DNA of 64,000 nucleotides from Sphingobacterium sp. (GTDB lineage: Bacteria; Bacteroidota; Bacteroidia; Sphingobacteriales; Sphingobacteriaceae): NCBI GenBank assembly GCA_040392845.1, contig JBEBVG010000002.1:1141-65140 (forward strand), read 5' to 3'. Positions 47,627 to 63,340 of the stretch are shown piece by piece. The notes under the pieces were generated by a model. It was given only the letters and a program-made list of their open reading frames with translations. It searched no databases and had not been told where the DNA came from. The position numbers were made by a program, and so were the translations under genes. Each line of letters starts with the position of its first letter. The stretch's first letter is position 1.

Positions 47627-47730
47627 GTAAAGTTGCTTACCGAAAATATTTTTCATTTTTTTATGGAAAGTACTTTTGGAAAGCATCATGAAAGAAAACA
47701 GAGTTGTTTATTTTTAAAGATTAAAAAGAA

Positions 47731-48390
47731 ATGGGAAAAGCAAAAGTAAAAAGAGCCAGTACATCGATCGATATGACGGCGATGTGTGACGTATCTTTCT
47801 TGCTTCTTACGTTCTTCGTTCTTACAGCGACAGCGAGACAACCAGAAACATTGACTGTCGATACAGCGCCTTCCTATTCTCAGGCAAAACTTCCCGATGG
47901 TAATCTTGCAATTATTACAGTAGGTGATGAGGGCAAAGTTTTCTTCAGCATGAGTGATCAGAATGTTCGTGTAGAGGCATTGAAGAGTGTGGGAAACTTG
48001 TACGGTATTGAGTTTACTCCGGAGGAACAGGCACAGTTTCAGGGGATGGAAGATTTTGGAGTTTCTATCCGTAACATGAAAGAATTGTTAGCTATGGATC
48101 CGGGAGCGAGAGCCGCTGTGCAGAGAGGTATTCCGGTGGATTCGACGACGAATTTGTCTAATGAATTGTCATCATGGGTAAAGCAAGCAAGATTAGCATC
48201 GGCTAAGATATTGCAGAACAGAGCGATAGCTGATGGAAAGGATCCGGATGATATCGAACTATTAACGGTAGCCATTAAAGCAGATGCTGATGAGAAGTTT
48301 CCTAGTTTGAACCTGATCATTGAAACGTTACGTAACCAGAAGCAGAATAAGTTTAGTTTTGTTACCGGTCTTAAATCGACTGAACAATAA
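47731..48390 (+). CDS. exbD: ExbD/TolR family protein
   Basis: IDMTAMCDVSFLLLTFFVLT, IKAD. Confidence 0.9.
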   Translation: MGKAKVKRASTSIDMTAMCDVSFLLLTFFVLTATARQPETLTVDTAPSYSQAKLPDGNLAIITVGDEGKVFFSMSDQNVRVEALKSVGNLYGIEFTPEEQAQFQGMEDFGVSIRNMKELLAMDPGARAAVQRGIPVDSTTNLSNELSSWVKQARLASAKILQNRAIADGKDPDDIELLTVAIKADADEKFPSLNLIIETLRNQKQNKFSFVTGLKSTEQ

Positions 48391-48402
48391 TATTAAAAGC
48401 AA

Positions 48403-48960
48403 ATGGCAGAATTAAATCAAGACGCCGGTAAGCAGGCCAAAGGCGGGAAAGTAAGAGCAAAGAAAAATGGCGGTAAGGTCGATCTTACAGCAATGGTAGA
48501 CTTAGCATTCTTATTGATTACGTTCTTTATGCTGACTACATCTCTGAATAAACCACAGGCGATGGATGTGGCCATGCCGGACAAGAATGTGGAGACGGAC
48601 AAAAAGGATGAGGTAGATATCGATGAACACCGTAGCGTAACGTTGGTGTTAGGCTCTAATGATAAATTAATATGGTATCAGGGTGCTGTCGGTAATCCAC
48701 TTCAAGGTCCTACAGTAATAGATTATAGTAAAGATGGCTTACGAGCGGTTTTGTTGAGCGTAAAAGAATTGGTGCCTAGACAGACAGGTGGTAAAGATGT
48801 AATTGTCGTTATTCGTCCGAGTGATAAATCTGTCACAAGGAATATCATTGATGCGCTAGACGAAATGAAAATTGCGGACATCAAACGCTATATGATCTCT
48901 AACCGTATCATGAAGGAAGAAATTGAGCTATTGGAAAAGGAGAATATATATAACGATTAG
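48403..48960 (+). CDS. exbD: ExbD/TolR family protein (second copy)
   Basis: VDLTAMVDLAFLLITFFMLT, IIDALDEM. Confidence 0.9.
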   Translation: MAELNQDAGKQAKGGKVRAKKNGGKVDLTAMVDLAFLLITFFMLTTSLNKPQAMDVAMPDKNVETDKKDEVDIDEHRSVTLVLGSNDKLIWYQGAVGNPLQGPTVIDYSKDGLRAVLLSVKELVPRQTGGKDVIVVIRPSDKSVTRNIIDALDEMKIADIKRYMISNRIMKEEIELLEKENIYND

Positions 48961-48996
48961 TAGAGGTTATATGTATTGTTATAAAACAAAAATAAT

Positions 48997-49872
48997 ATGT
49001 TTGAAAAATTAAATATATTTAAGAGTGAGTGGCTTGATGTAGTCTTCGAAAACAGGAATAAGGCTTATGGAGCTTATGAACTGCGCAGATTGGGGCCAAG
49101 AGCGACGAACACGGCGTTGTTAATCGTTTTGGCAGCTGTAGCGTTGTTCGCTATACCTCAGGCTTTCAATCTCAAGTTGTTCAACAGTTCAGCACCTAAG
49201 GAAGAAATCGCTTTCACGGAAGAATTAACTCTGGAGAATTTGCCAGAACTTCCTGAAGAAGAAGAGAAACCTCCTGTTCAGGAGGAGGCTCCGAAGATTG
49301 CGGAATCAAAACCAGCATTAGATGTTGTAGCTTTACCTGAGATCAAGCCTGTACCTAAGGAAAAGGCTGTCGAAACAGAAGTTGCTACTGTTGAAGAAGC
49401 AACAGATAAGAAGAAACTTATCGGTCCCGTGGCAATGAAGGGTATGAAAGGCGGAAGTATCACTACTGAAGGTAAATGGGGAACGAAAGATGTAGCAGGA
49501 TCAGCAACAGGTAGTACCAAAGGTGTTGAAGATGGTACTGGAGAAGGAGATCGTATCTTCGAATCCGTTGAAATCAATCCTTCGCCTAAAGATGGTATGG
49601 ATGCGTTTAGAAAATGGATTGCAGACAACTATCAATATCCGGCAGGTGCGATTGATGCAGGAGTGAAAGGTACTGTAACCGTTTCGTTTGTCGTAGAGCG
49701 TAACGGAGAGCTGACAGATATAAAGGTTCTCAAGGATTTGTCTTACGGTACAGGACAGGCTGCGATTAGCTTATTAAAGCGAGCGAAAAAATGGAACCCG
49801 GGAATACAAAACGGGCGTCCGGTTCGTGTGGCCTATACGCTTCCGATTCGTTTGGACTTAACACAAATGTAA
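48997..49872 (+). CDS. tonB: Energy transducer TonB
   Basis: FENRNKAYGAYELR, TM anchor, Pro/Glu linker, YP...G.V.V.FVV...W.PG.QNG.PVRV.Y.LPI C-domain. Confidence 0.9.
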   Translation: MFEKLNIFKSEWLDVVFENRNKAYGAYELRRLGPRATNTALLIVLAAVALFAIPQAFNLKLFNSSAPKEEIAFTEELTLENLPELPEEEEKPPVQEEAPKIAESKPALDVVALPEIKPVPKEKAVETEVATVEEATDKKKLIGPVAMKGMKGGSITTEGKWGTKDVAGSATGSTKGVEDGTGEGDRIFESVEINPSPKDGMDAFRKWIADNYQYPAGAIDAGVKGTVTVSFVVERNGELTDIKVLKDLSYGTGQAAISLLKRAKKWNPGIQNGRPVRVAYTLPIRLDLTQM

Positions 49873-50114
49873 TGAGTTTTAGTACTAACTCAAGAAATAG
49901 TAAATTTAGACAGAAATCGCCGACACAGCGATTTTTGTCCATTTTGGGACTATGTATGTTCTTGTTTTATTTCACTCTAGGACTTTTGATTATCTTTTGG
50001 AAAAATTTTCCGTTGGAGATTAACCCTACCTATAAGAATATGTTCGGTATATTATTGATTGTATATTCTTTTATGCGTTTTGCAAGGTTGTGGCAAAACA
50101 ATTTTATGCGTTAA
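49872..50114 (+). CDS. Small two-TM membrane protein
   Basis: ATG 49872 overlaps the tonB stop; two TM helices (FGILLIVYSFMRFAR). Confidence 0.7.
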   Translation: MSFSTNSRNSKFRQKSPTQRFLSILGLCMFLFYFTLGLLIIFWKNFPLEINPTYKNMFGILLIVYSFMRFARLWQNNFMR

Positions 50115-50161
50115 AAATTGTTAAGACTTAATCTTTTTATTAAAATTTTATTCATATTGAC

Positions 50162-51070
50162 ATGAAAGCTGGATTATACATTGTTGTTCTCTTTATATCT
50201 TTCGTTGTATTGGCTGCTTGTTCATCCGGTAAAAAGAAAGAAAAAAAAGACGATATACTATCCGGAGAGCTCTCTGTCAGTGTTGACGAAACAATATTAC
50301 CGCTCTTTATAGAGCAAAAGGAGGTCTTTGAAAGTTCATACTATAATGCGAAAGTTCATGCTTTGGCAAAGCCTGAAGTACAAGCTGTCAATGCCGTGCT
50401 AAAAGGCGAAGCACATATTGGTTTTTTTGCCAGGGAATTTTCAGAAGAGGAAAGAGATAATTTTAAGAGCCAATCTATTGAAGGACGGGTCTACCCGGTA
50501 GCATATGATGGTATCGTACTTGTAACAAATGTATCAGGAGCAGATACAAGCATGAATGTTAAAGATATCATTGCATTGTTGAAAGGGGAAAAGGTGAAGA
50601 ATGTCAAATTGGTGTTTGATAATTTAAATTCCAGCGTCTTGCGTTATTTTATAAATCTAGGAAAGATTGATAAAGTCGCAAGTACAAATGTAGAGACATT
50701 GAATGGTAGCGATGAAGTATTGGAGGAGATCGTAAAAACTGCTGGTAAAATTGGTTTTATAAGTTATAATCAATATTTATCTTTGAAAAGTTCTTTTACA
50801 GAAATGGAGAAAATTCGTATCTTAAGCGTGCTAAATGAGGCGGGAGGGAGACGTCGATATGTTTTACCTTCTCAAGCAAGTCTTTCGACAGATGAATATC
50901 CGTTAAAAAGAACAATATATATGTTAAACTATCAACCTAATATGGGGTTGGGGGTTGGATTTTCCGCATTTATGACAGGAGATCGTGGGCAGCGGATAGT
51001 ATTGAAATCAGGGTTGTTACCGGTGATAATGCCGGGAAGAGAGATTATAATTAGAGATAGAATAAATTAG
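50162..51070 (+). CDS. PstS-like (PBP_like_2) substrate-binding lipoprotein
   Basis: Lipobox LAAC; SVDET, AYDGIV, YPLKR.IY, GQRIVLKSGL. Confidence 0.8.
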   Translation: MKAGLYIVVLFISFVVLAACSSGKKKEKKDDILSGELSVSVDETILPLFIEQKEVFESSYYNAKVHALAKPEVQAVNAVLKGEAHIGFFAREFSEEERDNFKSQSIEGRVYPVAYDGIVLVTNVSGADTSMNVKDIIALLKGEKVKNVKLVFDNLNSSVLRYFINLGKIDKVASTNVETLNGSDEVLEEIVKTAGKIGFISYNQYLSLKSSFTEMEKIRILSVLNEAGGRRRYVLPSQASLSTDEYPLKRTIYMLNYQPNMGLGVGFSAFMTGDRGQRIVLKSGLLPVIMPGREIIIRDRIN

Positions 51071-51093
51071 TAATAAAATAAGAATATAATACG

Positions 51094-52881
51094 ATGATGA
51101 CAAAAAGTAAATTATTTTTGAGTCTTTTAATGGCCGGGGCAGTGGTGGGTTCTGCGACTGCGCAAAGGTTAAAAGATGCAAAAGCAGCAATTGAGGCGGA
51201 GCAATACGATAAGGCGAAGGAGATGCTGCAGACGTTGGTTGATAAGAAACCTAAGGATGGTGAGAATTACTTTTATTTAGGTCAAATATATCTGATCAAC
51301 GAAAAGGTTGATTCCGCAGCTTTAATATTCAATCAAGGAGTAACGAATGCACCAAAAGAGCAGTTAAATCAAATAGGTTTAGGGATAGTGGATCTGGAAA
51401 AAGGTAACGAAACTGCTGCTGAGCAAAAGTTTACAGCGGCTACGTCTTCCTTAGGTAAAAAAGATTATCTTCCTTTATATTATATTGGACGAGCTTACAT
51501 TGATGCTCCGAAACCGGATTATGCAAAGGCGATTGATTATCTGACTCAAGCAAAAGCAAAGAATCTCAAAGATCCGGAAATTTTGGTTGGATTAGGTGAT
51601 GCTTATAGTGGCATAAAGGGAGAAGCTAGTAACGCTTACGTGAATTACAGGGATGCGTTAAACTTAGATCCTAATTTGGTACGGGCACACGTAGGACAAG
51701 CTATTATCCAACGTAGGGCGCAAGCTTATGATGTGGCATTGGAGAATTTAGCTGAGAAAGCCAAGGAATATCCTAGCTTTGGACCGATCTATCGTGAATT
51801 AGCAGAGACTCAACTGGAACTGGCAAAGACTTTACCCGATAATACGGATGAAGAAAAGGCAAAATACGAATCGGAAATCAAAAAGGCAGTAGATTACTAT
51901 AAACAGTATCTACAGGTCACAGGAGATAAGTCTGTAGAAGCTAATGTACGTTATGCCGATTTCTTGGTTTGGGGACAGCAGTATGAAGAACTTAAAAACG
52001 TAGCCCTTCAATTGGCAAATGCACCCGGTGTAGATGCGAAGGTATACCGTTACCTGGGTTTGATTGCGGTTAACCAGGATGGTGATTTTGAAAAAGGAGC
52101 TGAATATTTTGGTAAGCTCTTCGCTGAAGCTGATACGAGCCGTTTAATTGATATAGATTATCTATTTGCTGGCTTTGCTAATATTCAGACTGGGAATGCT
52201 GCTAAAGGTGTTCCATATTTAGCTAAAGCACTGGAGAAAAATCCAGAGATCATGCCTGAAATTGGGTCTGCAGGGATGTTGGCATTCCAACAGGGTAACT
52301 ATGATGTAGCATCGGCTATATTAAGTGTACCTGCAAAGCAAAAAGGTACGGATTATTATTATGAGGCCAATTATGTTTTAGGAAATGCGAGCTTCCGTTC
52401 AGGAGTAGCCAAAAAAGAAGCGGCGACAGCAGCAGCACAGGGTGGTGATTCGACGAATGTGACAGCGGTTGATACGGCGTCTTATATGCCGGATTTCCGA
52501 AATGCGTTGAAAGCTTTCGATATCATTATTAAATCGAACGATCAAAAGGTATATGATGAGTATTTGGCTGGTGCGCTTTATTTGACAGGGTACGTTAATA
52601 TCTCATTAGATAATGTCAATCCTGAAACACCTGAATTGTGTAAGGGTCTATTTGTACCTGCTTTTACACAGTTGACAAAATTATTAAAGGATAAGCAACT
52701 TCAAGGACAGGAATTGACTGATGCAGAGCGTGGATATTTGGTTGATGCATACAATTATATCGGCTACTTCCATGTTACTAAGGAAGATTATGCAAGTGCA
52801 TTAGCATCGTTTGAAGAGACCGTAAAGGTCGCACCAAACGACGAGTTTGCTAAAGCGTATATTGAATATCTAAAGAGTTAA
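51094..52881 (+). CDS. Exported tetratricopeptide-repeat protein
   Basis: Signal peptide and multiple TPR-like helices (YFYLGQIY, LVGLGDAY, AYNYIGYF). Confidence 0.88.
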   Translation: MMTKSKLFLSLLMAGAVVGSATAQRLKDAKAAIEAEQYDKAKEMLQTLVDKKPKDGENYFYLGQIYLINEKVDSAALIFNQGVTNAPKEQLNQIGLGIVDLEKGNETAAEQKFTAATSSLGKKDYLPLYYIGRAYIDAPKPDYAKAIDYLTQAKAKNLKDPEILVGLGDAYSGIKGEASNAYVNYRDALNLDPNLVRAHVGQAIIQRRAQAYDVALENLAEKAKEYPSFGPIYRELAETQLELAKTLPDNTDEEKAKYESEIKKAVDYYKQYLQVTGDKSVEANVRYADFLVWGQQYEELKNVALQLANAPGVDAKVYRYLGLIAVNQDGDFEKGAEYFGKLFAEADTSRLIDIDYLFAGFANIQTGNAAKGVPYLAKALEKNPEIMPEIGSAGMLAFQQGNYDVASAILSVPAKQKGTDYYYEANYVLGNASFRSGVAKKEAATAAAQGGDSTNVTAVDTASYMPDFRNALKAFDIIIKSNDQKVYDEYLAGALYLTGYVNISLDNVNPETPELCKGLFVPAFTQLTKLLKDKQLQGQELTDAERGYLVDAYNYIGYFHVTKEDYASALASFEETVKVAPNDEFAKAYIEYLKS

Positions 52882-52902
52882 TTCAAATAGTTGATACTTA
52901 AT

Positions 52903-52944
52903 GATAAAAAAGGGAACTTCCTAAAGAGGTTCCCTTTTTTTATC
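52903..52944. terminator. Bidirectional Rho-independent terminator
   Basis: GATAAAAAAGGGAACTTC-ctaaa-GAGGTTCCCTTTTTTTATC between convergent genes. Confidence 0.8.
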
Positions 52945-52969
52945 GCCTGATGTGCTTTATCTAATGAAC

Positions 52970-53839
52970 TTAGCTTCTAGCTGCAATAAGCATGGACTCC
53001 AGTTCCATTAGGTTTTGAGCGATGATGTCGGGAACTGTGTCCGATATCCCGACGATGTCCATTGTTGTCTCACCAGAAAGGACGAGTACTCCGATTGCTC
53101 CAGCATTTTGGGCCATTTTGACATCTGTATATATTCGATCTCCAACCATTAAAACTTCAGAAGGTTGTAGCTTATAACGTTCTAAAATCCCATCCAGCAT
53201 ACTAGGGTTTGGTTTTCCTACGACAATGTCCGGAAGTCTGCCCGTAGCATGTTCAATACATGTGTAAATTGCACCACAATCTACCAAAATAGTTTTCTTG
53301 TCTGTTGGACAAACACGGTCCGGATTCGTTGCTACATACGGAAGTTTTTGAGCTACCCACCAAGAAGCTCTGCACAGGCGATCGTAGCTAAGGGTCATAT
53401 CGAAGCCGACTACAACTGCATCGGGCGTATCGTCCTCATCATCAGCAGTGGAGATAAAGCCAGCTTGCTCAAACTCTTTAATCATGCTAGGAGTACCTAA
53501 TAAGAAGAGTCTTTTTGCTTTAGGTATGTTCGTTTTTATATAGGATATTGTAGCCTGAGCGGATGTATACATCTCTTCCCTCACGGCATTTATACCCATT
53601 TTAGATAAATGGACTAAATAATCAGACGTACTTTTTGATGGATTGTTGGTAAGAAAGGAATATCCGATACCCATTTCTTTTAATTTAGCTAGAAAAGGAA
53701 TCGTAAAAGGGAACAATGTTGTACCATTATATATGGTACCATCCATATCTAGCGCGATATGTTTGATATTTTTTAAATGGTCGTATAACCTTTCCGTGGT
53801 GTTTAGTCTGCTGCTATCAATATATTTATATTCGTTCAT
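52970..53839 (-). CDS. HAD-IIA phosphatase (NagD/AraL-like)
   Basis: LDMDGT, LTNN, ATNPD, GKPN, MVGDRIYTDV, VLSG. Confidence 0.92.
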   Translation of the reverse strand: MNEYKYIDSSRLNTTERLYDHLKNIKHIALDMDGTIYNGTTLFPFTIPFLAKLKEMGIGYSFLTNNPSKSTSDYLVHLSKMGINAVREEMYTSAQATISYIKTNIPKAKRLFLLGTPSMIKEFEQAGFISTADDEDDTPDAVVVGFDMTLSYDRLCRASWWVAQKLPYVATNPDRVCPTDKKTILVDCGAIYTCIEHATGRLPDIVVGKPNPSMLDGILERYKLQPSEVLMVGDRIYTDVKMAQNAGAIGVLVLSGETTMDIVGISDTVPDIIAQNLMELESMLIAARS

Positions 53840-53853
53840 TCGATTTTCAGTAA

Positions 53854-55302
53854 TTATTCAGATTCATAACCGTGTGCTTTAGCTTTCCACATAAGGGCAA
53901 AGATGAATACGCAGAGTACAGCCATACCTATCATCATCATAAAGACGTAGTCCCAGGCTTTCCCAGGGCTGACCTTATTTATAGTATCCACCATAAAACC
54001 AATTCCAAAACCAGATACCAGACCACTAGCATAGCCAAATAAGCCAGTCAGGCCGTTGGCAGTGGCTGCAGCCCTGTTGGTCGCTTGATTCGCAGCGGCA
54101 ATACCAATAAGGGCTTGGGGACCGTAAATAAAAAAACCGGACATAGCCAAAGCCAGTATCATGCCCCAGGATGGGGTACTGTCTGGCAAGTATAAAAATA
54201 TAGTCATGAATATGGCAACACCTATCATGCAATATAAAGAGGTGCGATGTGCTTTTCCTTCAAGATACCTGTCGGTGACCCAGCCGGCGGCAAGCATGCC
54301 GATGATACCAAAAATTTCAAAAACAGCGACTGTCCATCCGGCATTAGTCAACGTCATACCGTGCGCTTCTTTTAAAAATGTCGGTCCCCAGTCCAATACA
54401 GCAAAACGAACGACATAGACGAAGAAATTGGCTATTCCAAGTATCCATATCCATTTATTGCGATAAACTGCTTTACGGACGAAAGCCTTAAATTCAGCAG
54501 AGGAATCCTTTCCCCTTTTATGTGTTTTATGTAATTCGGGCAAGCCCACTGATGATGGTGTGTCACGCAAGCCAAGGAACAACCCTATAGCCCCTGCCAG
54601 AGCGATGGCGGCCGGTATCCAAAAACACCACTTCCATGCCCCATAATGAGAGGCGGATTCGAGAACACTTTTCATTTTTTCGGTATCCGAAGGATCTACC
54701 TTCAAATTTGCCGCAATCGAGGCAATTACTTCGGGATTATCACTCATATTAGTACCCAGCGAGCCCATGATATAGCCAGCAAGAATGGCTACCAGTGCGG
54801 CCCCGATGGAGTGCGAGGTATTCCAAACCGACATTTTTGTCGCCAATTCATTTTGGGGTATCCAGTGAGTTAACAGCCGGGCAACGGGGGGAAAACCACT
54901 TCCTTGGAGAAGATTATTTAAAATCAGGATCACTCCGAATATCAGCACCATGGTATTTGTGAACATCGGGCCGCCCGTTTGTCCAGTAAAGACAACACTA
55001 AGATCGGCTCCCCAGCCGAAAGCGAAATTAGCTAGTGCGCATAAGAATAATCCGATGGACATGTGGTAACGGGCATTCATCCTGTCAGCTATCAGACCAT
55101 TGAGAAAACGTGACACACCGTAAACGATGGTAACCAATGTCATGATAATCCCAAAACTTGTTTTTGTAATCCCATATTCAGCTGTTAAGCCAGGAATGGC
55201 AAAGGAAAAGTTTTTACGTACAAAATAGAAAACCGCATAACCTATCATTGTCGTGATAATCGTACGTGTCTGCCAATACTTGAATACTTTTTCTTCTTTC
55301 AT
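53854..55302 (-). CDS. Organophosphate:Pi antiporter-family MFS (GlpT/UhpC-like)
   Basis: GYAVFYFVRKNF, QGSGFPP, WNTSHSIG, RDTPSSVGLP, YVVR, GWVTDR, YGPQ. Confidence 0.9.
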   Translation of the reverse strand: MKEEKVFKYWQTRTIITTMIGYAVFYFVRKNFSFAIPGLTAEYGITKTSFGIIMTLVTIVYGVSRFLNGLIADRMNARYHMSIGLFLCALANFAFGWGADLSVVFTGQTGGPMFTNTMVLIFGVILILNNLLQGSGFPPVARLLTHWIPQNELATKMSVWNTSHSIGAALVAILAGYIMGSLGTNMSDNPEVIASIAANLKVDPSDTEKMKSVLESASHYGAWKWCFWIPAAIALAGAIGLFLGLRDTPSSVGLPELHKTHKRGKDSSAEFKAFVRKAVYRNKWIWILGIANFFVYVVRFAVLDWGPTFLKEAHGMTLTNAGWTVAVFEIFGIIGMLAAGWVTDRYLEGKAHRTSLYCMIGVAIFMTIFLYLPDSTPSWGMILALAMSGFFIYGPQALIGIAAANQATNRAAATANGLTGLFGYASGLVSGFGIGFMVDTINKVSPGKAWDYVFMMMIGMAVLCVFIFALMWKAKAHGYESE

Positions 55303-55345
55303 GTTTTTTGATTTAGGTCGCTGTTTTTCATTTTTGTATAGCAGG

Positions 55346-56692
55346 CTAATTTAAAGATTTTTCCCAAATTCCACCACTGCCAAAGAGTTTATCTAAAAAC
55401 AAATCTGTTGTATTGGTACGAACTAGTAAATCCAATATAGTAAAGCGGCGTCGAATGTATTGCGCCCTTTGGAATGTCTTTTTGAGATATATTCGCGAGA
55501 CACCGATCTGTTCCGGTCGATAAGGAGCCCCTACCATCCTCAAGCGGTTTTTGGCTTCTTCAAAAGGAACTAACTGTTTATGGAGCCGTTCTCTGATTTG
55601 TGGCCAATTGTCTTTTAATATTTGTAGTTGTTTTGCAAGATCTTCTTTTCCAATATATTTTGCTTTTGTTTCCTGTACCCCGATTTCGGGGAAATCAGTG
55701 TCCTTAAATAAAGATCGGGCATCCTCTTCGAGTTCTTCTGCTGACGGCCAGGCTGCGCAACATTTTTCAATGTTCAGTTGGTCAAAAGGATATTTTAAAA
55801 CCTCTTCATATAATGCCGTGATTGCCAGTGTACCGATAGCCACCTGGAAGCCATGGGAGATAGATTTACCATCGTTGGTATGGTGTTCCATATTCCACAA
55901 GTGACTGAATTGATGTTCAGCACCTGAGGCGGGTCGGGAAGATTTAGACCATTGCATAGCAAACCCTCCAAGCATCAGTCCGCTGGTCAGTTCAAAGATT
56001 GCCTTTTCATCGCCTTTATATACACCAGTCGGATCGGATAAGGCATTATGTAGCCCATCTTGGACAATAGACCAAGCCTGAGGGTCGATCGGTTCTACTT
56101 GTAGACTGTCGGCTAGTATCCAATCCGCTCCTGCTGTTATTTTGGCAAATAGATCGGCATAACCTGAAGCAGTCATCTCACGCGGAGCTTTTCGAATAAT
56201 TGCGATGTCTGCTACACACACTGCTGGTGCGGGGCAATTAAAGGTTTGTTTAGCACCACCTGCTGTAATTGACGCACCAAATGCAGTATACCCGTCCATA
56301 GAAGCTGCAGTTGCGATGCACATATAGGATCTCTTTTTTTGATGTGCGGCTAACTTGGTGAGGTCATTAATCGTACCCGAACCTACTGCTAACGGAATGG
56401 CTTGATGCGTAGCTAGCGATGCAGACAGTTGATCGACATAACTGTATTCGGCATATAGTTCGGAATCATGGAATATGAATGGTGCCTCCTGCACGATTCC
56501 GCTTTTTTCCAACAGTTCGGAAATTTTTTTTCCTGCGAGAGTATAAGTCGTATTATCCGCTACGATTACAGCCCTTTTATCACCATAATATTTTTTGAAT
56601 AGTTCGGGTATCTTTTCAAGGACATTGCTACCCATTAATAGGTCTTTTGTTTCACTCGCTGCCTGTAGAGCAGCTTCTACGTTTGTCGACAT
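55346..56692 (-). CDS. sn-glycerol-1-phosphate dehydrogenase (AraM/EgsA family)
   Basis: AVGSGTINDLTK, TAASMDGY, SGYADLFAK, SRPASGAEHQFSH, HGFQV metal/NAD motifs. Likely start is ATG 56692. Confidence 0.88.
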   Translation of the reverse strand: MSTNVEAALQAASETKDLLMGSNVLEKIPELFKKYYGDKRAVIVADNTTYTLAGKKISELLEKSGIVQEAPFIFHDSELYAEYSYVDQLSASLATHQAIPLAVGSGTINDLTKLAAHQKKRSYMCIATAASMDGYTAFGASITAGGAKQTFNCPAPAVCVADIAIIRKAPREMTASGYADLFAKITAGADWILADSLQVEPIDPQAWSIVQDGLHNALSDPTGVYKGDEKAIFELTSGLMLGGFAMQWSKSSRPASGAEHQFSHLWNMEHHTNDGKSISHGFQVAIGTLAITALYEEVLKYPFDQLNIEKCCAAWPSAEELEEDARSLFKDTDFPEIGVQETKAKYIGKEDLAKQLQILKDNWPQIRERLHKQLVPFEEAKNRLRMVGAPYRPEQIGVSRIYLKKTFQRAQYIRRRFTILDLLVRTNTTDLFLDKLFGSGGIWEKSLN

Positions 56693-56697
56693 GGTAT

Positions 56698-57630
56698 TTA
56701 AAAATTTTTGCCGTTTAGTACATTCCAAACTTCTATAGGAAGATCCGATTCGATAATGTCGGGTCTTTTATTAATTTCTTCCAGATAACGCAGGTCCCGC
56801 TCTTCTGGATTTGTGATCTTATCGTGTGAAGGAGCTACAGAAATCATACATTTTACACCGTTTGCCCGCAGTTTTTCAACAATAGTTGTATTCTTTTCGT
56901 CGATAGTCCATCCCACATAGGCAATCGTGTTTTTCCAAGGCACGCCGGAGATTTCCATGTCGGCATATTCTTTTTCGTTTCTTGCGAAAGCGGACAGCAT
57001 AATATCTGGAAAACGGTCGTAATAATATCGGGCCTGGGCTCCCGTGTGGACGGTCAACATTACATGTTTTTGGGCCTTGTGTTTGCTAATCAGCTCGGCG
57101 ATCATATGAAGAGGCACATCTTTTTTATCTAGATTGATTACGGTTTTACCCCTACTCCATATGATGATATCTTCTAATTTAGGAATTTTATAAGGAGTGA
57201 TATTTCCCTTTGCATCTTTTAAACGGACTGATTTTAACTCTTCCCAGGTATAGTCTGAAAGTTTTCCGGTAGCTGTTGTAGTCCTATCTAATGTAGCGTC
57301 GTGCATCAATACGATAACGCTATCTTTCGTTAGGCGAGGATCGATTTCAAAAAATGCCGGCATTACCTCCAATACGCCTTGGAGACCCTCCAAGCTATTC
57401 TCCGGGAAATCTATCCCTCCTCGATGTCCACTTATAGTAATGCTCCCCTCATTTTTATACTTGAAAAAATTCTGTAGTTCTTCCACATTATGAAAATCGA
57501 GATAGTTGAATTTCTTTTCAGGCTTTTTTGACTGGGCATCGACTATGCTTGGGGGAAATAAAAAAGTCGTAGCCAATAACAAGTATGCGGCTTTAAGTCT
57601 GCTATTCAATAATTTTTTTAGTATTATCAT
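56698..57630 (-). CDS. Exported glycerophosphodiester phosphodiesterase (GDPD)
   Basis: Signal peptide; SGHRGG..PENS, EIDPRLTKD...LMHD.TLDRTT, IESD.P. Confidence 0.92.
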   Translation of the reverse strand: MIILKKLLNSRLKAAYLLLATTFLFPPSIVDAQSKKPEKKFNYLDFHNVEELQNFFKYKNEGSITISGHRGGIDFPENSLEGLQGVLEVMPAFFEIDPRLTKDSVIVLMHDATLDRTTTATGKLSDYTWEELKSVRLKDAKGNITPYKIPKLEDIIIWSRGKTVINLDKKDVPLHMIAELISKHKAQKHVMLTVHTGAQARYYYDRFPDIMLSAFARNEKEYADMEISGVPWKNTIAYVGWTIDEKNTTIVEKLRANGVKCMISVAPSHDKITNPEERDLRYLEEINKRPDIIESDLPIEVWNVLNGKNF

Positions 57631-57688
57631 ACATTTCGGTTTATTTCCTTTTTATAAAAAATGTTTACAAAACACAAATTTAGAAAAC

Positions 57689-57715
57689 AAAACGAAAAAT
57701 AAAAAGAAAACGAAA
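57689..57715. promoter_or_regulatory. Candidate DeoR/AgaR-type operator (direct repeats)
   Basis: AAAACGAAA at 57689 and 57707 (TTTCGTTTT on the minus strand), just upstream of the GDPD -7 element (57675-57682) in the divergent region. Confidence 0.45.
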
Positions 57716-57798
57716 CTTATTTGTTTCATAGTGTTACTAGGTATTGTTTTGATTTCATGAATTATTTTCTTTATTTTACGTAGAAAGGATAGCGTATC

Positions 57799-58569
57799 AT
57801 GGTTTTAAGTATAGCCGAAAGACACAAGTATATATTGAGTGTTCTTCAGAAAGAGGGATTTGTAAAGGTAGTGGATATAGCTAAAAAATTGGACGTCACG
57901 ACAGTTACTGTTCGTAAAGATTTTAAAGCTTTAGAAAAAAAAGGCCTTCTTTATCGTACGCATGGAAGTGCCAGCCCCATTAATCCTCATATTGCTGACA
58001 AAAATGTAAAAGAGAAAGAAAAGATAAGAATAAAGGAGAAACAGCTAATCGGTATTTTCGCATCCCGGTTAATAGAGGTGGATGACTCGATTATTATCAA
58101 TTCGGGCTCTACAATATGTGCTTTTGCCGAACAGATTGAGCCAAGAGGTCAGTTGACGGTGGTGACCTCATCCATTAAGGCTACGTCTATATTGGGCGAA
58201 GTGGAAGGTGTGCAGGTGTCGCAACTTGGAGGTAGGCTTCGTCGCAGTTCTATGTCCGTTATCGGAAGCTATACCTTAAGCTTTTTGGAAAATATTACTT
58301 GTTCCAAGGTGTTTTTAGGTGTAGACGGTATAGATCCTGATTTTGGCGTAACGACTTCCAATATTGAGGAGGCCGAACTCAATAGAGCAATGATGGATGT
58401 CGCACTCAAGACTATTGTACTCTGTGACTCTTCGAAATTTGGAAGAAAAGGTTTTGGCAAAATATGCAGTGTGGATAAGATTGATATCGTCGTGACGGAT
58501 GATGGGATCTCTTCATCGATGCGGCAATTACTTGAGGACTATGGTGTCGAAGTGATTGTTGCCGGGTAA
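57799..58569 (+). CDS. DeoR/GlpR/AgaR-family transcriptional regulator
   Basis: ERHKYIL, VTTVTVRKDF..LE, RTHGSA, SGST, FLGVDG, DSSKFG. Confidence 0.93.
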   Translation: MVLSIAERHKYILSVLQKEGFVKVVDIAKKLDVTTVTVRKDFKALEKKGLLYRTHGSASPINPHIADKNVKEKEKIRIKEKQLIGIFASRLIEVDDSIIINSGSTICAFAEQIEPRGQLTVVTSSIKATSILGEVEGVQVSQLGGRLRRSSMSVIGSYTLSFLENITCSKVFLGVDGIDPDFGVTTSNIEEAELNRAMMDVALKTIVLCDSSKFGRKGFGKICSVDKIDIVVTDDGISSSMRQLLEDYGVEVIVAG

Positions 58570-58647: not shown

Positions 58648-60213
58648 ATGAAAAACAAATTATGTGGACTCAAGTATGCACTCTATATTGGAATAGGGTT
58701 GGGAATAGCATCTTTTGCCAGCTGTAATTCGGCAAAGAAAGCCGGTAGTAAAGCAAATTTGCCGAATATTATAATCATAAATATGGACGATCTGGGCTAT
58801 GGAGATATAGGAGCTTACGGAGCCAAGGGTATTTCCACACCGAATATGGACAGGCTTGCCAATGAGGGTATCCGCTTTACCAATGGCTATGCCACTTCCT
58901 CGACTTGTACACCGAGCCGTTTCGGAATGCTGACGGGCGTATATCCCTGGCACAACAGCGATGCAAAGATACTGCCGGGTACGGCTCCCTTGCTGATCGA
59001 CACGGCCCAGCAGACCCTGCCCAAGATGCTGCGGCAGGCTGGATACCGGACCGGTGTTGTGGGGAAATGGCACCTGGGTCTGGGTAGCGGCCATGTGGAC
59101 TGGAACGGTCACATCAGCCCAGGGCCGAATGAAGTGGGCTTCGACGAATCCTTTATTATGGCGGCTACACAGGATCGTGTACCTACCGTGTATATAGAGG
59201 ACGGACGTGTAGCCGGCTTAGATGCTGACGACCCTATCGAAGTAAGCTACGAAAAGAATTTCGAAGGAGAGCCTACAGGCTTGGAAAACACCGAATTGTT
59301 GAAGATGAAGTGGCACCACGGGCACAACCAGAGCGTCGTGAACGGTATTCCGCGTATCGGATATATGAAAGGCGGTGAAAAGGCGAAATGGGTAGATGAG
59401 GATATGGCCGATATGTTTCTATCCAAGGCACAATCTTTTGTAAGGAAACATAAATCGGGACCTTTTTTCCTTTACTATGCCATGCAGCAGCCGCATGTGC
59501 CCCGCACGCCACACCCACGTTTTGTCGGATCTACGGCTATGGGTCCGAGAGGGGATGTTATTGTGGAGGCCGACCACAGCGTGGGAGCCTTCTTAAAGAC
59601 GCTGGAAGAAGAAGGTCTGCTGGAGAACACGCTGATTATCTTTACGAGTGACAACGGCCCGGTGCTGAATGACGGCTATTATGACGATGCGGTGGAGAAA
59701 GCAGGATCACATCGTCCTAACGGGGCACTACGTGGCGGGAAATACAGTCTTTATGAGGCAGGTCCTCGTGTACCGTTCATGGTGTATTGGAAAGGGACGA
59801 CCAAACCTCAAGTGTCGGATGCCATAGTATGCCAACTTGATTTTCTGGCGTCATTTGCAGAGCTGGCGGGTCAGACGATCCAGGGTACCGATAGCCGGAA
59901 CTATCTGGACGCGCTGCTGGGCAGATCAAAACGGGGCCGTGACGCTCTGGTGTTGGAGGCCAGTTCCAAGACGTTTCTTCGGCAGGGAGACTGGATGATG
60001 ATACCTCCGTACCGGGGAGCAGTGTTGAACAAGCAGGTGAACATTGAGCTTGGAAATTCAGATACATATCAGCTGTACAATGTCAAAGAAGACGTTGGTC
60101 AACAGAACAACCTGGCGGAGCAGGAGCCGAATAAGCTAAAGGAAATGAAGAAGTTGTATGGAGAGTTGAGGGGACCTGCCAATACAGCCATTCAGGAATT
60201 GGAATTACATTGA
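58648..60213 (+). CDS. S1 sulfatase (Cys-type) lipoprotein
   Basis: Lipobox FASC; DDLGYGD, CTPSRFGMLTG, GKWHLG, FTSDNG, GGKYS.YEAG.RVP. Confidence 0.92.
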   Translation: MKNKLCGLKYALYIGIGLGIASFASCNSAKKAGSKANLPNIIIINMDDLGYGDIGAYGAKGISTPNMDRLANEGIRFTNGYATSSTCTPSRFGMLTGVYPWHNSDAKILPGTAPLLIDTAQQTLPKMLRQAGYRTGVVGKWHLGLGSGHVDWNGHISPGPNEVGFDESFIMAATQDRVPTVYIEDGRVAGLDADDPIEVSYEKNFEGEPTGLENTELLKMKWHHGHNQSVVNGIPRIGYMKGGEKAKWVDEDMADMFLSKAQSFVRKHKSGPFFLYYAMQQPHVPRTPHPRFVGSTAMGPRGDVIVEADHSVGAFLKTLEEEGLLENTLIIFTSDNGPVLNDGYYDDAVEKAGSHRPNGALRGGKYSLYEAGPRVPFMVYWKGTTKPQVSDAIVCQLDFLASFAELAGQTIQGTDSRNYLDALLGRSKRGRDALVLEASSKTFLRQGDWMMIPPYRGAVLNKQVNIELGNSDTYQLYNVKEDVGQQNNLAEQEPNKLKEMKKLYGELRGPANTAIQELELH

Positions 60214-60570: not shown

Positions 60571-60951
60571 ATGGAGAATTTAAACGGGCAAAATTTGCCT
60601 ATAGACTACGTCCCTATTCTTATTCAACTGGCAGTAGCTGCGGGGTTTGGTGTGACAACGATTATCGGAACCCATTTACTGGGACCTAAAGTGAGAACAA
60701 AAAATAAACTGACCGCATTTGAGTCTGGAATTGAAGTCGTTGGAAATGCAAGACAGCCTTTCTCAATCAAGTACTTTCTCGTAGCGATCCTATTTGTGAT
60801 TTTTGATATCGAGGTCATATTTATGTACCCTTGGGCTGTGAATTTTAGAGAGTTCGGGGTAGAGGGACTGATCGAAATGTTCATTTTCATGGGTCTTCTT
60901 CTTCTCGGGTTTATATATGTCGTTAAGAAAAGAGCCTTGGATTGGGATTAG
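60571..60951 (+). CDS. nuoA: NADH-quinone oxidoreductase subunit A
   Basis: FESGIE, YFLVAILFVIFDIEVIFMYPWA, ALDW. Confidence 0.96.
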   Translation: MENLNGQNLPIDYVPILIQLAVAAGFGVTTIIGTHLLGPKVRTKNKLTAFESGIEVVGNARQPFSIKYFLVAILFVIFDIEVIFMYPWAVNFREFGVEGLIEMFIFMGLLLLGFIYVVKKRALDWD

Positions 60952-60964
60952 ATTGATTCTAAAT
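60946..60964. promoter_or_regulatory. Fur-box-like palindrome between nuoA and nuoB
   Basis: GATTAGATTGATTCTAAAT; 15/19 match to ATTTAGAATTATTCTAAAT. Confidence 0.4.
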
Positions 60965-61042
60965 ATAATCGCGAGGTTCGATGCGACAGAATAAAATATT
61001 ATATTGGCCCGTTACAGGCTTGGAAATGAAGAGATATGAACT

Positions 61043-61597
61043 ATGAGTAAGGTTACGTTAGCTGAAGCCCCCCCGGGAGTAGAAGGAGCTGGATTTTTTG
61101 CGACTTCTTTAGATAAAGTTATAGGTTTGGCGAGAGCAAATTCCCTATGGCCGCTACCTTTTGCCACGTCATGTTGTGGCATTGAATTTATGGCGACGAT
61201 GGGGTCTACATATGATTTGGCCCGTTTTGGTGCTGAACGGCCGAGCTTTTCTCCGCGTCAGGCGGACATGTTGCTTGTGATGGGTACAATTGCGAAGAAG
61301 ATGGCTCCGGTGTTAAAACAAGTCTATATACAGATGGCCGAACCAAGATGGGTGATTGCCGTGGGCGCATGTGCCTCCAGCGGAGGTATATTTGATACCT
61401 ATTCTGTACTCCAGGGAATAGATGAAATTATTCCTGTGGACGTATATGTTCCCGGATGCCCTCCGCGGCCCGAAGCTATTTTAGATGGTGTACTGAAATT
61501 GCAGGAAATCGTCAAAAACGAATCCCTAAACAGACGAAATACACCTGAATATAAAGCATTGTTGGAAAAATACGGAATACAAACAGATAATGGATAA
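61043..61597 (+). CDS. nuoB: NADH-quinone oxidoreductase subunit B
   Basis: [29 protein letters not shown]. Confidence 0.97.
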
Positions 61598-62093
61598 GTT
61601 AGACAATCAAGGCATCTGGAGGTCTCTTCAAGAGCAGTTCGCCGAACAAGTCAGTCTTGTGGGTGAACCTCATGGGCTGCTAACGGTAGCTACAACAAAG
61701 GAGAGTATCCTTGCACTTCTTTCTTTCTTGAAGAATGACGAAAGACTTCGGTTTACTTATCTGACGGATATTACTGCTGTGCATTATCCGCGACAAGAGA
61801 AGCCATTTGCTGTCGTATATCATGTACACAACCTGTTTCAGAATGTACGGGTACGTATCAAAGTGTTTATAGGCGGTGACCAACCGACTATCCCGACTGC
61901 AACCACCATTTGGGAGGGTGCGAATTGGATGGAAAGGGAAACGTACGATTTTTTTGGTATTGTATTCGAAGGCCATCCCGATTTGCGGCGTATATTGAAT
62001 ATGGATGAGTTGGACGTCTTCCCGATGCGTAGAGAATATCCACTGGAAGATCCAAACCGGGTGGATAAAAAGGATTTTTATTTTGGACGATAA
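61590..62093 (+). CDS. nuoC: NADH-quinone oxidoreductase subunit C
   Basis: [25 protein letters not shown]. Confidence 0.96.
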
Positions 62094-62104
62094 ATACGGA
62101 GAAG

Positions 62105-63340
62105 ATGAGCAATTCCATAACAAAAATAACGCCTAATAACCCCGTCTTTTTTGATAATGATCCCCAAGAGGAATTGACGACGCTCAATATCGGGCCCACG
62201 CATCCTGCGACACATGGTGTGTTTCAGAACGTATGTCAGATGGATGGCGAACGTATCGTCAGTGCTGTATCCACCATTGGATATATTCATAGGGCATTTG
62301 AAAAAATCGCTGAACACCGTCCTTTCTACCAGATTACACCGTTGACGGACAGGCTTAACTATTGTTCGTCGCCCATCAACAATATGGGCTATCACATGAC
62401 CGTGGAAAAGCTACTGAATATTGAAATACCTAAGCGGGTACAATATATGCGGGTGATCGTTATGGAGTTGGCTCGGATTGCAGACCATATCATCTGTAAT
62501 GGTATCCTGGGTGTTGACACGGGTGCTTTCTCCGGCTTCTTGTATGTGATGCAGGAGCGTGAGTTTATCTACGAAATATTTGAAGAAATCTGCGGAGCGC
62601 GTCTGACGACAAATATTGGGAGGATTGGAGGCTTTGAGCGCGATTTCAACGACGTCGCCTTCCGCAAAATCAGGGAATTCCTGGATCGTTATCCGCCAGT
62701 ATTGAAAGAATTTGAAGAGCTTTTCGTCCGCAATAGAATATTTATCGAACGTACCGCTGGCGTCGCCGCGGTGACACCCGAACAGGCATTAAGCTACAGC
62801 TGGTCAGGGCCGATATTAAGGGCAACAGGTGTAGATTATGATGTGCGGGCAGTAGCGCCTTATTGTTCCTATGAAGAATTTGATTTTGAAGTACCTGTCG
62901 GCACTAATGGCGATGTTTACGATCGTTTTATGGTACGTAATGCAGAGATGTGGCAATCCATGCGCATTATAGAGCAGGCTTTAGAAAAAATAGCGAAAGA
63001 ACCTGCAGGTATTTTCCATGCCGATGTTCCGGAATTTTATTTGCCACCGAAGGAACAGGTTTACAATAATATGGAGGCTCTTATTTATCATTTCAAAATT
63101 GTGATGGGGGAGTGGGAAACACCGATATCTGAAGTGTATCATGCCGTAGAAGGAGCAAATGGAGAGTTGGGGTTTTATCTGATTCACGACGGTGGACGTA
63201 CACCTTATCGTCTGCATTTCAGAAGACCCTCTTTTGTAAATTATCAGATGTTTGCACCGATGAGCAGCGGTATGTTACTATCCGATGCTATTATCAATAT
63301 GAGTAGTTTAAATGTTATTGCAGGAGAGTTAGATGCTTAG
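62105..63340 (+). CDS. nuoD: NADH-quinone oxidoreductase subunit D
   Basis: NIGPTHPATHG, GYIHRAFEK, DRLNY, ELARIADH. Confidence 0.97.
   Translation: MSNSITKITPNNPVFFDNDPQEELTTLNIGPTHPATHGVFQNVCQMDGERIVSAVSTIGYIHRAFEKIAEHRPFYQITPLTDRLNYCSSPINNMGYHMTVEKLLNIEIPKRVQYMRVIVMELARIADHIICNGILGVDTGAFSGFLYVMQEREFIYEIFEEICGARLTTNIGRIGGFERDFNDVAFRKIREFLDRYPPVLKEFEELFVRNRIFIERTAGVAAVTPEQALSYSWSGPILRATGVDYDVRAVAPYCSYEEFDFEVPVGTNGDVYDRFMVRNAEMWQSMRIIEQALEKIAKEPAGIFHADVPEFYLPPKEQVYNNMEALIYHFKIVMGEWETPISEVYHAVEGANGELGFYLIHDGGRTPYRLHFRRPSFVNYQMFAPMSSGMLLSDAIINMSSLNVIAGELDA

Follow-up and report, generated by a model that had tools for sequence, protein, structure and literature searches.

The locus discussed here spans positions 52970 to 58569 of the window (the whole stretch of Sphingobacterium sp. 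DNA that was analysed, 64,000 nucleotides long) and comprises five genes, four on the minus strand and a divergent one on the plus strand, all found where the original prediction had put them. The first of the four (56698..57630, minus strand) encodes a GDPD of 310 aa (PF03009, E 2e-18). The ATG of the second (55346..56692, minus strand), which encodes a 448-aa AraM/EgsA-like metal- and NAD-dependent polyol-phosphate dehydrogenase (PF13685, E 1e-31), lies 5 nt past the GDPD stop codon. It is followed by genes for an MFS transporter of the organophosphate:Pi antiporter family (53854..55302, minus strand; 482 aa), of a subfamily distinct from GlpT, and for a HAD-IIA (NagD/AraL-like) phosphatase (52970..53839, minus strand; 289 aa). 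The divergent gene (57799..58569, plus strand) encodes a 256-aa DeoR-family regulator (PF00455 and PF08220). The operon of exported GDPD, AraM-type dehydrogenase, GlpT-like antiporter and HAD-IIA phosphatase that had been proposed thus holds for gene content, gene order and the divergent DeoR, the word 'exported' resting on an N-terminus that resembles a signal peptide when judged by eye, which makes a periplasmic GDPD likely. Neither glpD, glpK nor a GGGP synthase (GGGPS) gene was seen among the open reading frames of the region, again as predicted.

The short intergenic gaps (5, 43 and 14 nt between the GDPD, dehydrogenase, antiporter and HAD genes) and a hairpin at 52903..52944 with a predicted fold of -18.6 kcal/mol are consistent with a predicted single operon. 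The hairpin, bordered by A and T runs, lies in the interval where the HAD and TPR genes converge and is likely a bidirectional terminator; it is absent from the output of a consensus terminator scan, and scanning for sigma-70 promoters and terminators gave no signal exceeding shuffled sequence. In the 168-bp divergent region lies a candidate operator (57684..57715, minus strand) made of two direct copies of TTTCGTTTT(G/C)TTTT with a spacing of 18 nt, which has two exact matches in the 3.2-Mb genome, both of them here. Comparable repeats are found upstream of the cassette in six other loci (L014, L031, L088, L162, L164 and L165). The region is also matched by DNA contigs from four runs in four studies, one run possibly being the window's own source, with contig spans that include 56071-58034 and 52726-54643; a search for RNA runs carrying it listed none.

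Proteins encoded by the cassette

By sequence, the best PDB match of the dehydrogenase is Bacillus subtilis AraM (9h4x, E 3e-40), which is also the best Foldseek match (TM 0.74/0.83, E 1.5e-22) of a structure model with a pLDDT of 89.7, Methanocaldococcus jannaschii G1P dehydrogenase (G1PDH) ranking near the top. The Asp/His/His triad and the DG..S and SRPASGxEHxxSH motifs are present on alignment to AraM and EgsA. Outside the triad, D133, R253 and S256 are kept in 81/81 sequences and H264 in 78/81. The metal triad (D180/H260/H280), assigned according to the available text of PMC6737245, is likewise kept in all 81. The assayed activity of AraM is that of an sn-glycerol-1-phosphate (G1P) dehydrogenase, as cited in PMC4244643, which favours G1P as the substrate here too. 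Two features count against it: the identity to AraM is only about 25%, and the score against the curated G1PDH family NF002022 (187.6 bits) is below the cut-off of 413. A candidate specificity signature dividing glycerol from pentitol contexts was rejected: only copies from Apibacter differ, and the kinase-linked copies at loci L019 and L085 are not separated, no active-site difference from the window protein having been found in segments that are nearly identical.

The GDPD, with 3mz2 as best PDB match (E 5e-85), is by its sequence a member of a non-GlpQ subfamily. It keeps the catalytic His/Arg/His of GlpQ and the Ca2+ ligands Glu70 and Asp72 (as H69, R70, E95, D97 and H110), while the third ligand, Glu152, is not kept, Asp168 standing there (GlpQ residues as given in the available part of PMC7086022). 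Opposite Gln188 and Phe190, the stereo-selecting face of GlpQ, MAFFT tentatively places T193 and H195; an HHalign comparison of the GDPD subfamily with the glp GDPD ended at residue 159, short of these positions. The T-V-H motif was dropped as a cassette-specific G1P signature because GDPDs of unrelated kinase clusters also have it.

The antiporter has Escherichia coli GlpT (1pw4, E 3e-62) as best PDB match. It is not GlpT proper, scoring 271 bits against a TIGR00712 cut-off of 632.55, and five GlpTs group in a clade of their own (support 1.0), apart from the cassette antiporters. On alignment to 1pw4, the phosphate-site residues of GlpT are kept (R45 in 57/57, R269 in 56/57 and H165 in 55/57), and W138F, N166S, V365Q and M366A are found in at least 56 of the 57 antiporters. 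The HAD protein exceeds the TIGR01460 cut-off (142.7 versus 100.15 bits), has a DMDGT (DxD) motif and matches PDB entries among which are NagD proteins of the Thermotoga type and phosphatases acting on glycerol-3-phosphate. The regulator, once labelled DeoR/GlpR, does belong to the DeoR family, but it is under the GlpR cut-off (96.6 < 331) and nearer to AgaR, whose cut-off it also misses (222.7 < 260); it is 52% identical to the DeoR adjoining the genome's own glp cluster.

The cassette in its genome and in other bacteria

That glp cluster, on contig C31 of the same genome (G000) and apart from the window operon, has the canonical DeoR/glpD-glpK-glpF-GDPD-glpT content; its GlpT passes the family cut-off and its GDPD retains E152, Q188 and F190 of GlpQ. 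Since G000 already holds it, the window operon is not the ordinary sn-glycerol-3-phosphate (G3P) system, and one would not expect the glp genes of C31 to act on G1P. An involvement in ether-lipid synthesis was rejected, because PcrB/GGGPS has no match in G000 (82% complete) and none above the cut-off in 52 other cassette genomes.

The cassette was found across Bacteroidota and Verrucomicrobiota, where 80 loci were compared: the same antiporter subfamily occurs in 52, the HAD in 53 and a GDPD in 31. The dehydrogenase clade is patchy (4/150 genomes of the family, 0/400 of the phylum), and the antiporter subfamily is present in exactly the 5/151 family-sample genomes that have it. The GDPD subfamily, in contrast, occurs in 53/150 family genomes. 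A GDPD is missing from 49/80 loci, although the flanks are short in 27 of the 80; the closely related L162 and L014, in which the cassette occupies the same place in the chromosome, are among those that lack it. Judging from these comparisons, the GDPD is a dispensable part and its subfamily is not cassette-specific.

A FAD-type G3P dehydrogenase homologue lies within 4 kb in 25/80 loci (seven Bacteroidota GlpD, 13 verrucomicrobial GlpD-like proteins and five GlpABC). Those from Bacteroidota share 52-55% identity with the G000 GlpD and fall among glpK-linked GlpDs, with which they have motif segments in common, whereas the 13 verrucomicrobial proteins group apart in a clade whose motifs differ, an observation that counts against the G1P reading. 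Fusions are also found: GDPD-dehydrogenase fusions form four 50%-clusters and GlpD-dehydrogenase fusions two, on separate branches (P0271, which is 64% identical to the window dehydrogenase and belongs to a cluster of 23 members, and P0272). Counts from a metagenome scan seeded with P0271, a redundant and GlpD-biased set, were left out of the support; in the two of its loci checked for a fused frame (L176 and L198), GlpD is separate. The N-terminal domain of P0138 is NadD-like rather than a glycerol-phosphate cytidylyltransferase and was dropped as evidence.

The cassette is thus linked to GlpD or GlpABC in 25/80 loci, but pentitol/tetritol markers (AraB, AraD, RpiB, a DeoC-like aldolase or an RbtT/DalT-family permease) are present in 14/80. 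The dehydrogenases of these 14 loci, three of which also carry GlpD, are nested within the clade of the window protein, which likewise counts against G1P as the substrate.

Possible roles of the cassette

Type I lipoteichoic acid (LTA) is built of G1P repeats, and G1P is also the head group of phosphatidylglycerol. The reading that we modestly favour, from sequence comparison, is that the operon scavenges G1P, which would end as DHAP or as glycerol and Pi. Where present, the probably periplasmic GDPD would cut small phosphodiesters, for example glycerophosphoglycerol or pieces of LTA, and so free glycerophosphate. G1P that other cells set free would also be usable, which would explain cassettes without GDPD. 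Naming LTA as the source is guesswork, given how many loci lack the GDPD and how much more widespread its subfamily is than the dehydrogenase clade. That intact LTA is not cleaved by GlpQ (PMC7086022) and that B. subtilis converts LTA to glycerol via ShfP and PhoA (PMC13440414) were counted in favour of the G1P reading. The antiporter would bring G1P in and Pi out, and the substrate would arrive phosphorylated, the operon being without a kinase. The dehydrogenase would then convert G1P to DHAP with NAD+, no extra dedicated enzyme being required, while the HAD would yield glycerol and Pi, the glycerol going to the genome's GlpK and GlpD. The HAD, previously proposed as an overflow valve, may instead be a main route, which would matter if the oxidation were thermodynamically blocked or if phosphorus alone were wanted. 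DeoR would repress via the direct repeat, with a phosphorylated intermediate relieving the repression. Many relatives have GlpD in the operon, which would make one unit oxidising both enantiomers.

The relevant potentials for G1P oxidation by NAD+ are -0.19 and -0.32 V, from which the reaction is computed to be about 25 kJ/mol uphill, so that forward oxidation requires a G1P/DHAP ratio above ~250-2500 at NAD+/NADH of 100-10. This counts against the G1P reading, as do the absence of GDPD from most loci and the competition that would arise between the HAD and the dehydrogenase acting on one substrate. Nevertheless, a catabolic role on glycerophosphate, as originally proposed, gains support from the separate glp cluster, from GGGPS being above the cut-off in 0/52 other genomes, from the GlpD/GlpABC links and from the GDPD and GlpD fusions. 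What is weakened is its restriction to G1P, by kinase, AraD, RpiB and permease links in 14/80 loci and by the nearly identical active-site segments of L019 and L085.

Those links could point to another substrate, D-ribitol-5-P (from wall teichoic acid or capsules) or D-erythritol-4-P, with G1P perhaps also accepted, a role to which we would give about one chance in five. On our reading of the Fischer convention, both compounds match G1P (D-glycerol-3-P) at the carbon beside the phosphate. Their oxidation would give L-ribulose-1-P or L-erythrulose-1-P, with the HAD pulling the reaction by removing phosphate and kinases elsewhere finishing it; the HAD would thus gain an in-line role and the thermodynamic problem would be eased. 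A ribulokinase above the cut-off adjoins the dehydrogenase in five loci (L019, L085, L074, L076 and L058), AraD is present in three Apibacter loci, the permease lies within 4 kb in 6/80, and RpiB occurs in 2/80 and is fused in P0124. Rubrobacter homologues (45%) adjoin FGGY kinases, a Dak-family kinase, HAD-IIA and RpiB, and the accessible text of PMC4437456 describes in Propionibacterium freudenreichii an araB-araB-araM-araL locus and an unexplained use of erythritol and adonitol. However, no such marker is inside the window, and G3P-dehydrogenase links outnumber markers across loci (25/80 versus 14/80). A C4 or C5 product is further disfavoured because the onward enzymes were often not found. 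AraD occurs in 21/53 cassette genomes and ribulokinase in 29/52; AraD was not found in the other 32, including G000 (82% complete), G070 (99%) and G121, a 99% complete genome of the same genus with the cassette at the same site, in which ribulokinase, class II aldolase and Dak1 also had no match and TIM was single. Dak1 was without a match, and TIM single, in 5/5 genomes. G000 itself has an RpiB match and one ribulokinase-like gene (45%) in a different cluster.

The same thermodynamics would suit a dehydrogenase running from DHAP to G1P, ~25 kJ/mol downhill, for overflow, heterochiral lipids or export, which we regard as unlikely. With the HAD, the overflow form would drain DHAP and NADH to glycerol while the cell feeds on glycerophosphate; co-location with GlpD fits too, and a GlpD fusion would turn G3P into G1P. 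G000 encodes PlsY, and PlsY and PlsC take G1P in vitro (PMC13400652, available part). Against this direction speak the lack of GGGPS matches and the nutrient-uptake look given by the patchy spread, the dedicated antiporter subfamily, a diesterase of secreted type, regulators of the DeoR or SorC kind in 38/80 loci and the occurrence of SusC/SusD neighbours. A second G3P system without stereochemical novelty, with diesterase and antiporter for other G3P diesters and a HAD that detoxifies G3P, would fit the GlpD/GlpABC neighbours, the regulator's resemblance to the glp DeoR and the G3P phosphatases among HAD-IIA homologues, but is most improbable because 35/53 genomes with the cassette have a further GlpT-like gene apart from it (E <= 1e-130; 19 above the cut-off), the antiporter and the diesterase do not match conserved residues of GlpT and GlpQ throughout, and the AraM-like enzyme would be left without a role.

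Scavenging of G1P was not found described in the literature searched. A bolder version, which we hold only tentatively and think rather doubtful as a whole, would make this the first dedicated G1P catabolic system, with a G1P-selective antiporter subfamily, a diesterase in which the stereo-selecting face of GlpQ is reversed (LTA being eaten from its free end) and an 'archaeal' dehydrogenase working backwards, fused with GlpD in relatives into a two-enantiomer glycerophosphate dehydrogenase. On that view, AraM homologues in bacteria would for the most part serve to break down polyol phosphates of the D series (G1P, erythritol-4-P and ribitol-5-P), which would also explain AraM-AraL next to AraB-AraD.

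If G1P scavenging is confirmed, it would represent a second, mirror-image glycerol-phosphate route, filling a gap in the recycling of LTA and lipid head groups. An importer of G1P together with a diesterase that releases it would close this gap for communities in gut, soil and manure that recycle the carbon and phosphorus of cell walls, and would provide reagents distinguishing LTA from WTA. Bacterial G1PDH genes would also be read differently in lipid-divide phylogenomics, where the available literature excerpts treat them as biosynthetic.

Comparison with known systems

The ery pathways of Brucella and Rhizobium (EryA, EryB, EryH and EryI) similarly oxidise a polyol phosphate beside the phosphate to a ketose-1-phosphate, but they rely on a kinase, on isomerases and on a FAD enzyme resembling GlpD, and the window has none of these. 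Unlike the ara-type AraB-AraD-AraL-AraM cluster, the window operon has neither ribulokinase nor AraD. Archaeal EgsA/G1PDH has the family and catalytic motifs in common with the window dehydrogenase, which differs in its score below NF002022, in having no GGGPS found with it and in its catabolic neighbourhood. B. subtilis AraM, a Ni2+ sn-G1P dehydrogenase, shares the fold, metal triad, SRPASG motif and, with AraL, the HAD-IIA pairing, whereas the window protein is of low identity, has a longer C-terminal part and is not linked to araA, araB or araD. AraM is discussed in print as feeding a PcrB ether lipid, but PcrB was not found with the window cassette. In B. subtilis, LTA is converted to glycerol via ShfP and PhoA (PMC13440414, available part), which resembles the proposed route in leading from a G1P polymer to glycerol and phosphate, and 9/80 cassette loci have calcineurin-like phosphoesterases. 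There, however, phosphate is stripped outside the cytoplasm by alkaline phosphatase, and the available part of that report mentions no G1P importer or dehydrogenase.

The classical glp system of E. coli and B. subtilis (GlpQ, GlpT, GlpD/GlpABC, GlpK and GlpR) differs in that an NAD-type AraM-like enzyme replaces the FAD enzyme in the window, a HAD is added and transporter and GDPD are of other subfamilies, the FAD G3P dehydrogenase and glycerol kinase being left to C31, with its own DeoR, GDPD and GlpT. Yet the two share an exported GDPD, a phosphate-ester antiporter, a dehydrogenase forming a ketose phosphate and a DeoR-type regulator, and in relatives GlpD or GlpABC is found inside the cassette locus itself.

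Genomic organization and conserved core

The five genes of the original prediction lie where it had placed them, their coordinates agreeing with the window sequence. Family scans identified, on the minus strand, a GDPD (57630-56698), an AraM-like dehydrogenase of 448 aa (56692-55346), an MFS transporter of the organophosphate antiporter type (55302-53854) and an HAD-IIA protein (53839-52970), separated by gaps of 5, 43 and 14 nt and ending in a hairpin found by folding (52903-52944), with a DeoR gene (57799-58569, plus strand) divergent from them. The 168-bp divergent region contains a direct repeat, a candidate operator that we take to resemble AgaR operators; the genome holds no exact match to the pattern beyond these 2, and a similar direct repeat lies upstream of several relatives' cassettes. 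DNA contigs from four studies cover the stretch piecewise. Homologues that carry names suggest a Sphingobacteriaceae-like member of Bacteroidota as the host. The operon is real, conserved and assembled from known families.

Read by eye, the flanks hold exbB-exbD-exbD-tonB, PstS-like and TPR genes (46796-52881) and the nuo operon (60571-63860), and the cassette sits between the same housekeeping blocks in two related loci, L014 and L162. At this chromosomal site a GDPD gene is present in a third close relative, L171, and absent from L162 and L014. A sulfatase-family gene directly after the DeoR gene (58648-60213, plus strand; GC 51% versus 40-45% in the operon) is missing from the site in L162, L171 and L014, and a contig from a different run leaves out 430 nt at its 3' end; it is probably outside the cassette.

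Of 150 family genomes sampled, 4 carry the dehydrogenase clade (65-70% identity), and one further match is more distant (27%); of 400 phylum genomes none carries the clade, the matches there being two distant ones. Among 151 genomes, the antiporter subfamily is confined to exactly the 4 clade-bearing genomes and the window's own, the remaining matches (38-43% identity) including known GlpT positions. A GTDB scan confirmed 582 relatives, the best 80 of which, mostly from Bacteroidota and Verrucomicrobiota, were used for counts of neighbours within 4 kb of the dehydrogenase; the 80 loci are related to one another, include two same-genome pairs and have short flanks in 27 cases. Within this set, the neighbourhood conservation that the original prediction had proposed to survey holds for a stable core of dehydrogenase, antiporter (52/80) and HAD (53/80), but less so for GDPD (31/80). 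Antiporter and HAD occur together in 42 of the 80, joined by GDPD in 16, and the regulator is of SorC type in 22 and DeoR in 16. Two Bacteroides genomes (L069 and L088; L031 and L097) carry one standard cassette and one fast-evolving copy; the latter is divergent from glpABC-glpT, its GDPD is of canonical type, HAD is missing and Asn replaces His264.

Diagnostic residues

B. subtilis AraM is the best solved relative of the dehydrogenase, by sequence and by fold, and in alignment the metal triad and the G1PDH motifs are retained. Asp46, present in 78 of 81 sequences, presumably points to NAD as cofactor. The antiporter retains the two arginines and the histidine of GlpT, while four positions differ from five GlpTs in at least 56 of 57 sequences. 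Its middle holds about 40 additional residues (window ~54790-54650, minus strand), which Pedobacter-type copies share and 430-aa copies lack. The GDPD keeps the catalytic residues, with Asp in place of GlpQ Glu152, and in a multiple alignment appears to have Thr-Val-His opposite GlpQ Gln188-Ser-Phe190, a face said in PMC7086022 to exclude the sn-1 isomer. As a stereo-selectivity signal this face is suggestive only; the motif also occurs in GDPDs from other clusters, and GDPDs related to the window's are found in 53 of 150 family genomes.

Genomic links to glycerophosphate

The host genome (82% complete) carries on contig C31 a DeoR gene divergent from glpD-glpK-glpF-GDPD-glpT, in which GlpT is above the family cut-off and the GDPD, aligned to B. 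subtilis GlpQ, retains E152, Q188 and F190. Because this cluster is canonical, the window operon is a second system, distinct from the ordinary G3P regulon. The lack of a GGGP synthase, noted in the original prediction for the window, extends to this 82% complete genome, where PcrB/GGGPS has no match, and 0 of 52 cassette genomes have GGGPS above cut-off. The genome has one TIM and two GpsA-type matches. GlpK is above cut-off in 34 of 53 cassette genomes, and 35 of 53 have a separate GlpT-like gene.

In 25 of the best 80 of 582 loci, an FAD-type homologue of G3P dehydrogenase is encoded within 4 kb (7 Bacteroidota GlpD, 13 verrucomicrobial GlpD-like and 5 GlpABC), and the commonest Bacteroidales form, DeoR divergent from glpD-GDPD-dehydrogenase-antiporter-HAD, is the window operon plus glpD. 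The cassette-linked Bacteroidota GlpDs share 52-55% identity with the GlpD of the host. They fall among glpK-linked GlpDs from 7 loci and have the same motif segments, although most make up their own subclade; the verrucomicrobial proteins are a separate clade. Two GlpD-dehydrogenase fusions fall on different branches: P0271 (1006 aa; 54% identical to the host GlpD and 64% to the window dehydrogenase), whose cluster has 23 members, 12 of the 15 listed being full length, and P0272, a single sequence. Four GDPD-dehydrogenase fusions, each a single sequence, emerged from 20 of 150 representatives scanned.

At L091:14463-18045, genes for GlpK, for an ethanolamine permease (EutH) and for a pyridine-nucleotide oxidoreductase are oriented towards the cassette, a hint that glycerophosphoethanolamine may be used there. 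In L022, L083, L085 and L089 the cassette lies within SusC/SusD loci alongside calcineurin-like and EEP phosphoesterases and a PF12831 oxidoreductase; such loci are candidates for the use of teichoic acids or of other polymers linked by phosphodiesters. A second phosphodiester cluster on host contig C63 (L010:4846-16880; also L105, L108-L110, L112-L116, L118 and L121) has DeoR divergent from an MFS transporter, a PF12831 FAD oxidoreductase, an EEP phosphoesterase, a 2-hydroxyacid dehydrogenase, two FGGY kinases, a histidine phosphatase, a GDPD sharing 45% identity with that of the window, and an IPT/TIG-NAGPA protein. Its FGGY-phosphatase-GDPD string is conserved across the family, and the PF12831 oxidoreductase also occurs in 10 of the best 80 of 582 dehydrogenase loci.

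Genomic links to other polyols

In the Fischer convention, G1P is D-glycerol-3-P, and D-erythritol-4-P and D-ribitol-5-P share its configuration beside the phosphate; a single kind of enzyme could therefore act on each of them, with chain length readable from partner genes. A longer D-series polyol phosphate as substrate is the strongest rival reading, if an unlikely one. Markers of other polyols occur in 14 of the best 80 of 582 loci (ribulokinase 5, AraD and transaldolase 3, RbtT/DalT-family permease 6, RpiB 2, DeoC-like aldolase 1), L058 having an additional ribulokinase on the opposite strand, and in the tree the marker-bearing dehydrogenases nest inside the window's clade; the L019 copy shares 68% identity with the window enzyme and has nearly the same active-site segments. 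Rubrobacter and Rhizobium homologues reside in polyol clusters. Against this reading, onward partners for C4/C5 products were not found for the window, which favours DHAP as the predicted product: AraD and ribulokinase occur in only 21/53 and 29/52 cassette genomes, AraD, class II aldolase and Dak1 have no match in the host genome (82% complete), and a same-genus genome with the cassette at the same site (G121, 99% complete) has one TIM and no match to AraD, ribulokinase, Dak1 or class II aldolase.

Among other members, three Apibacter loci (L074, L076 and L081) hold GlpF-transaldolase-AraM-HAD-AraD-ribulokinase strings, with no araA within the loci; a similar AraM-type string is described for Propionibacterium in PMC4437456. 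A route from ribitol-5-P through L-ribulose-1-P and L-ribulose to L-ribulose-5-P would explain AraM-AraL-AraB-AraD. Rhizobial plasmids (L100-L102) carry distant homologues (27-30% identity) in a conserved locus with an FGGY kinase, a SorC regulator, an HAD-IIB protein, a glpD-like gene, a sugar ABC transporter and an aldolase/SDR. A distant dehydrogenase homologue (27% identity) in L018 (G149 contig C154) is accompanied by an HAD and by an ORF similar, by eye, to a teichoic-acid-type polymerase, which may reflect biosynthetic use of the family.

Proposed role and alternatives

The reading to which we lean is that G1P, set free or already present outside the cell, would be imported by the antiporter in exchange for Pi. 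It would then take one of two routes, oxidation to DHAP by the dehydrogenase or hydrolysis that yields Pi and glycerol, the latter passing to the glp genes. LTA is in our judgement a possible but doubtful natural source, and glycerophosphoglycerol from phosphatidylglycerol is as plausible. With potentials of -0.19 and -0.32 V, NAD-linked G1P oxidation would cost about +25 kJ/mol, and much of the flux may therefore follow the HAD route. The same figure makes the reductive direction a live rival, albeit a still less likely one, and it gains from the acceptance of G1P by PlsY (PMC13400652), which is present in the host genome. A plain second G3P system seems highly improbable.

Comparison with known systems

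A full-text search, with subscription journals mostly outside it, found no description of the cassette, of a G1P importer or of catabolic G1PDH use, with the neighbouring literature covered as well (PMC7086022, PMC13400652, PMC13440414, PMC5059525, PMC10221552, PMC4244643, PMC6737245, PMC7852524, PMC4437456, PMC2996990). The supplements of phylogenomic papers may list clade members. The operon, predicted to be a mirror-image glp regulon, likely does act as a mirror-image glp system, and it stands outside the glp regulon proper, whose canonical cluster is on C31. Its antiporter and GDPD are likewise distinct from GlpT and GlpQ proper, and the operon is not part of the ether-lipid pathway.
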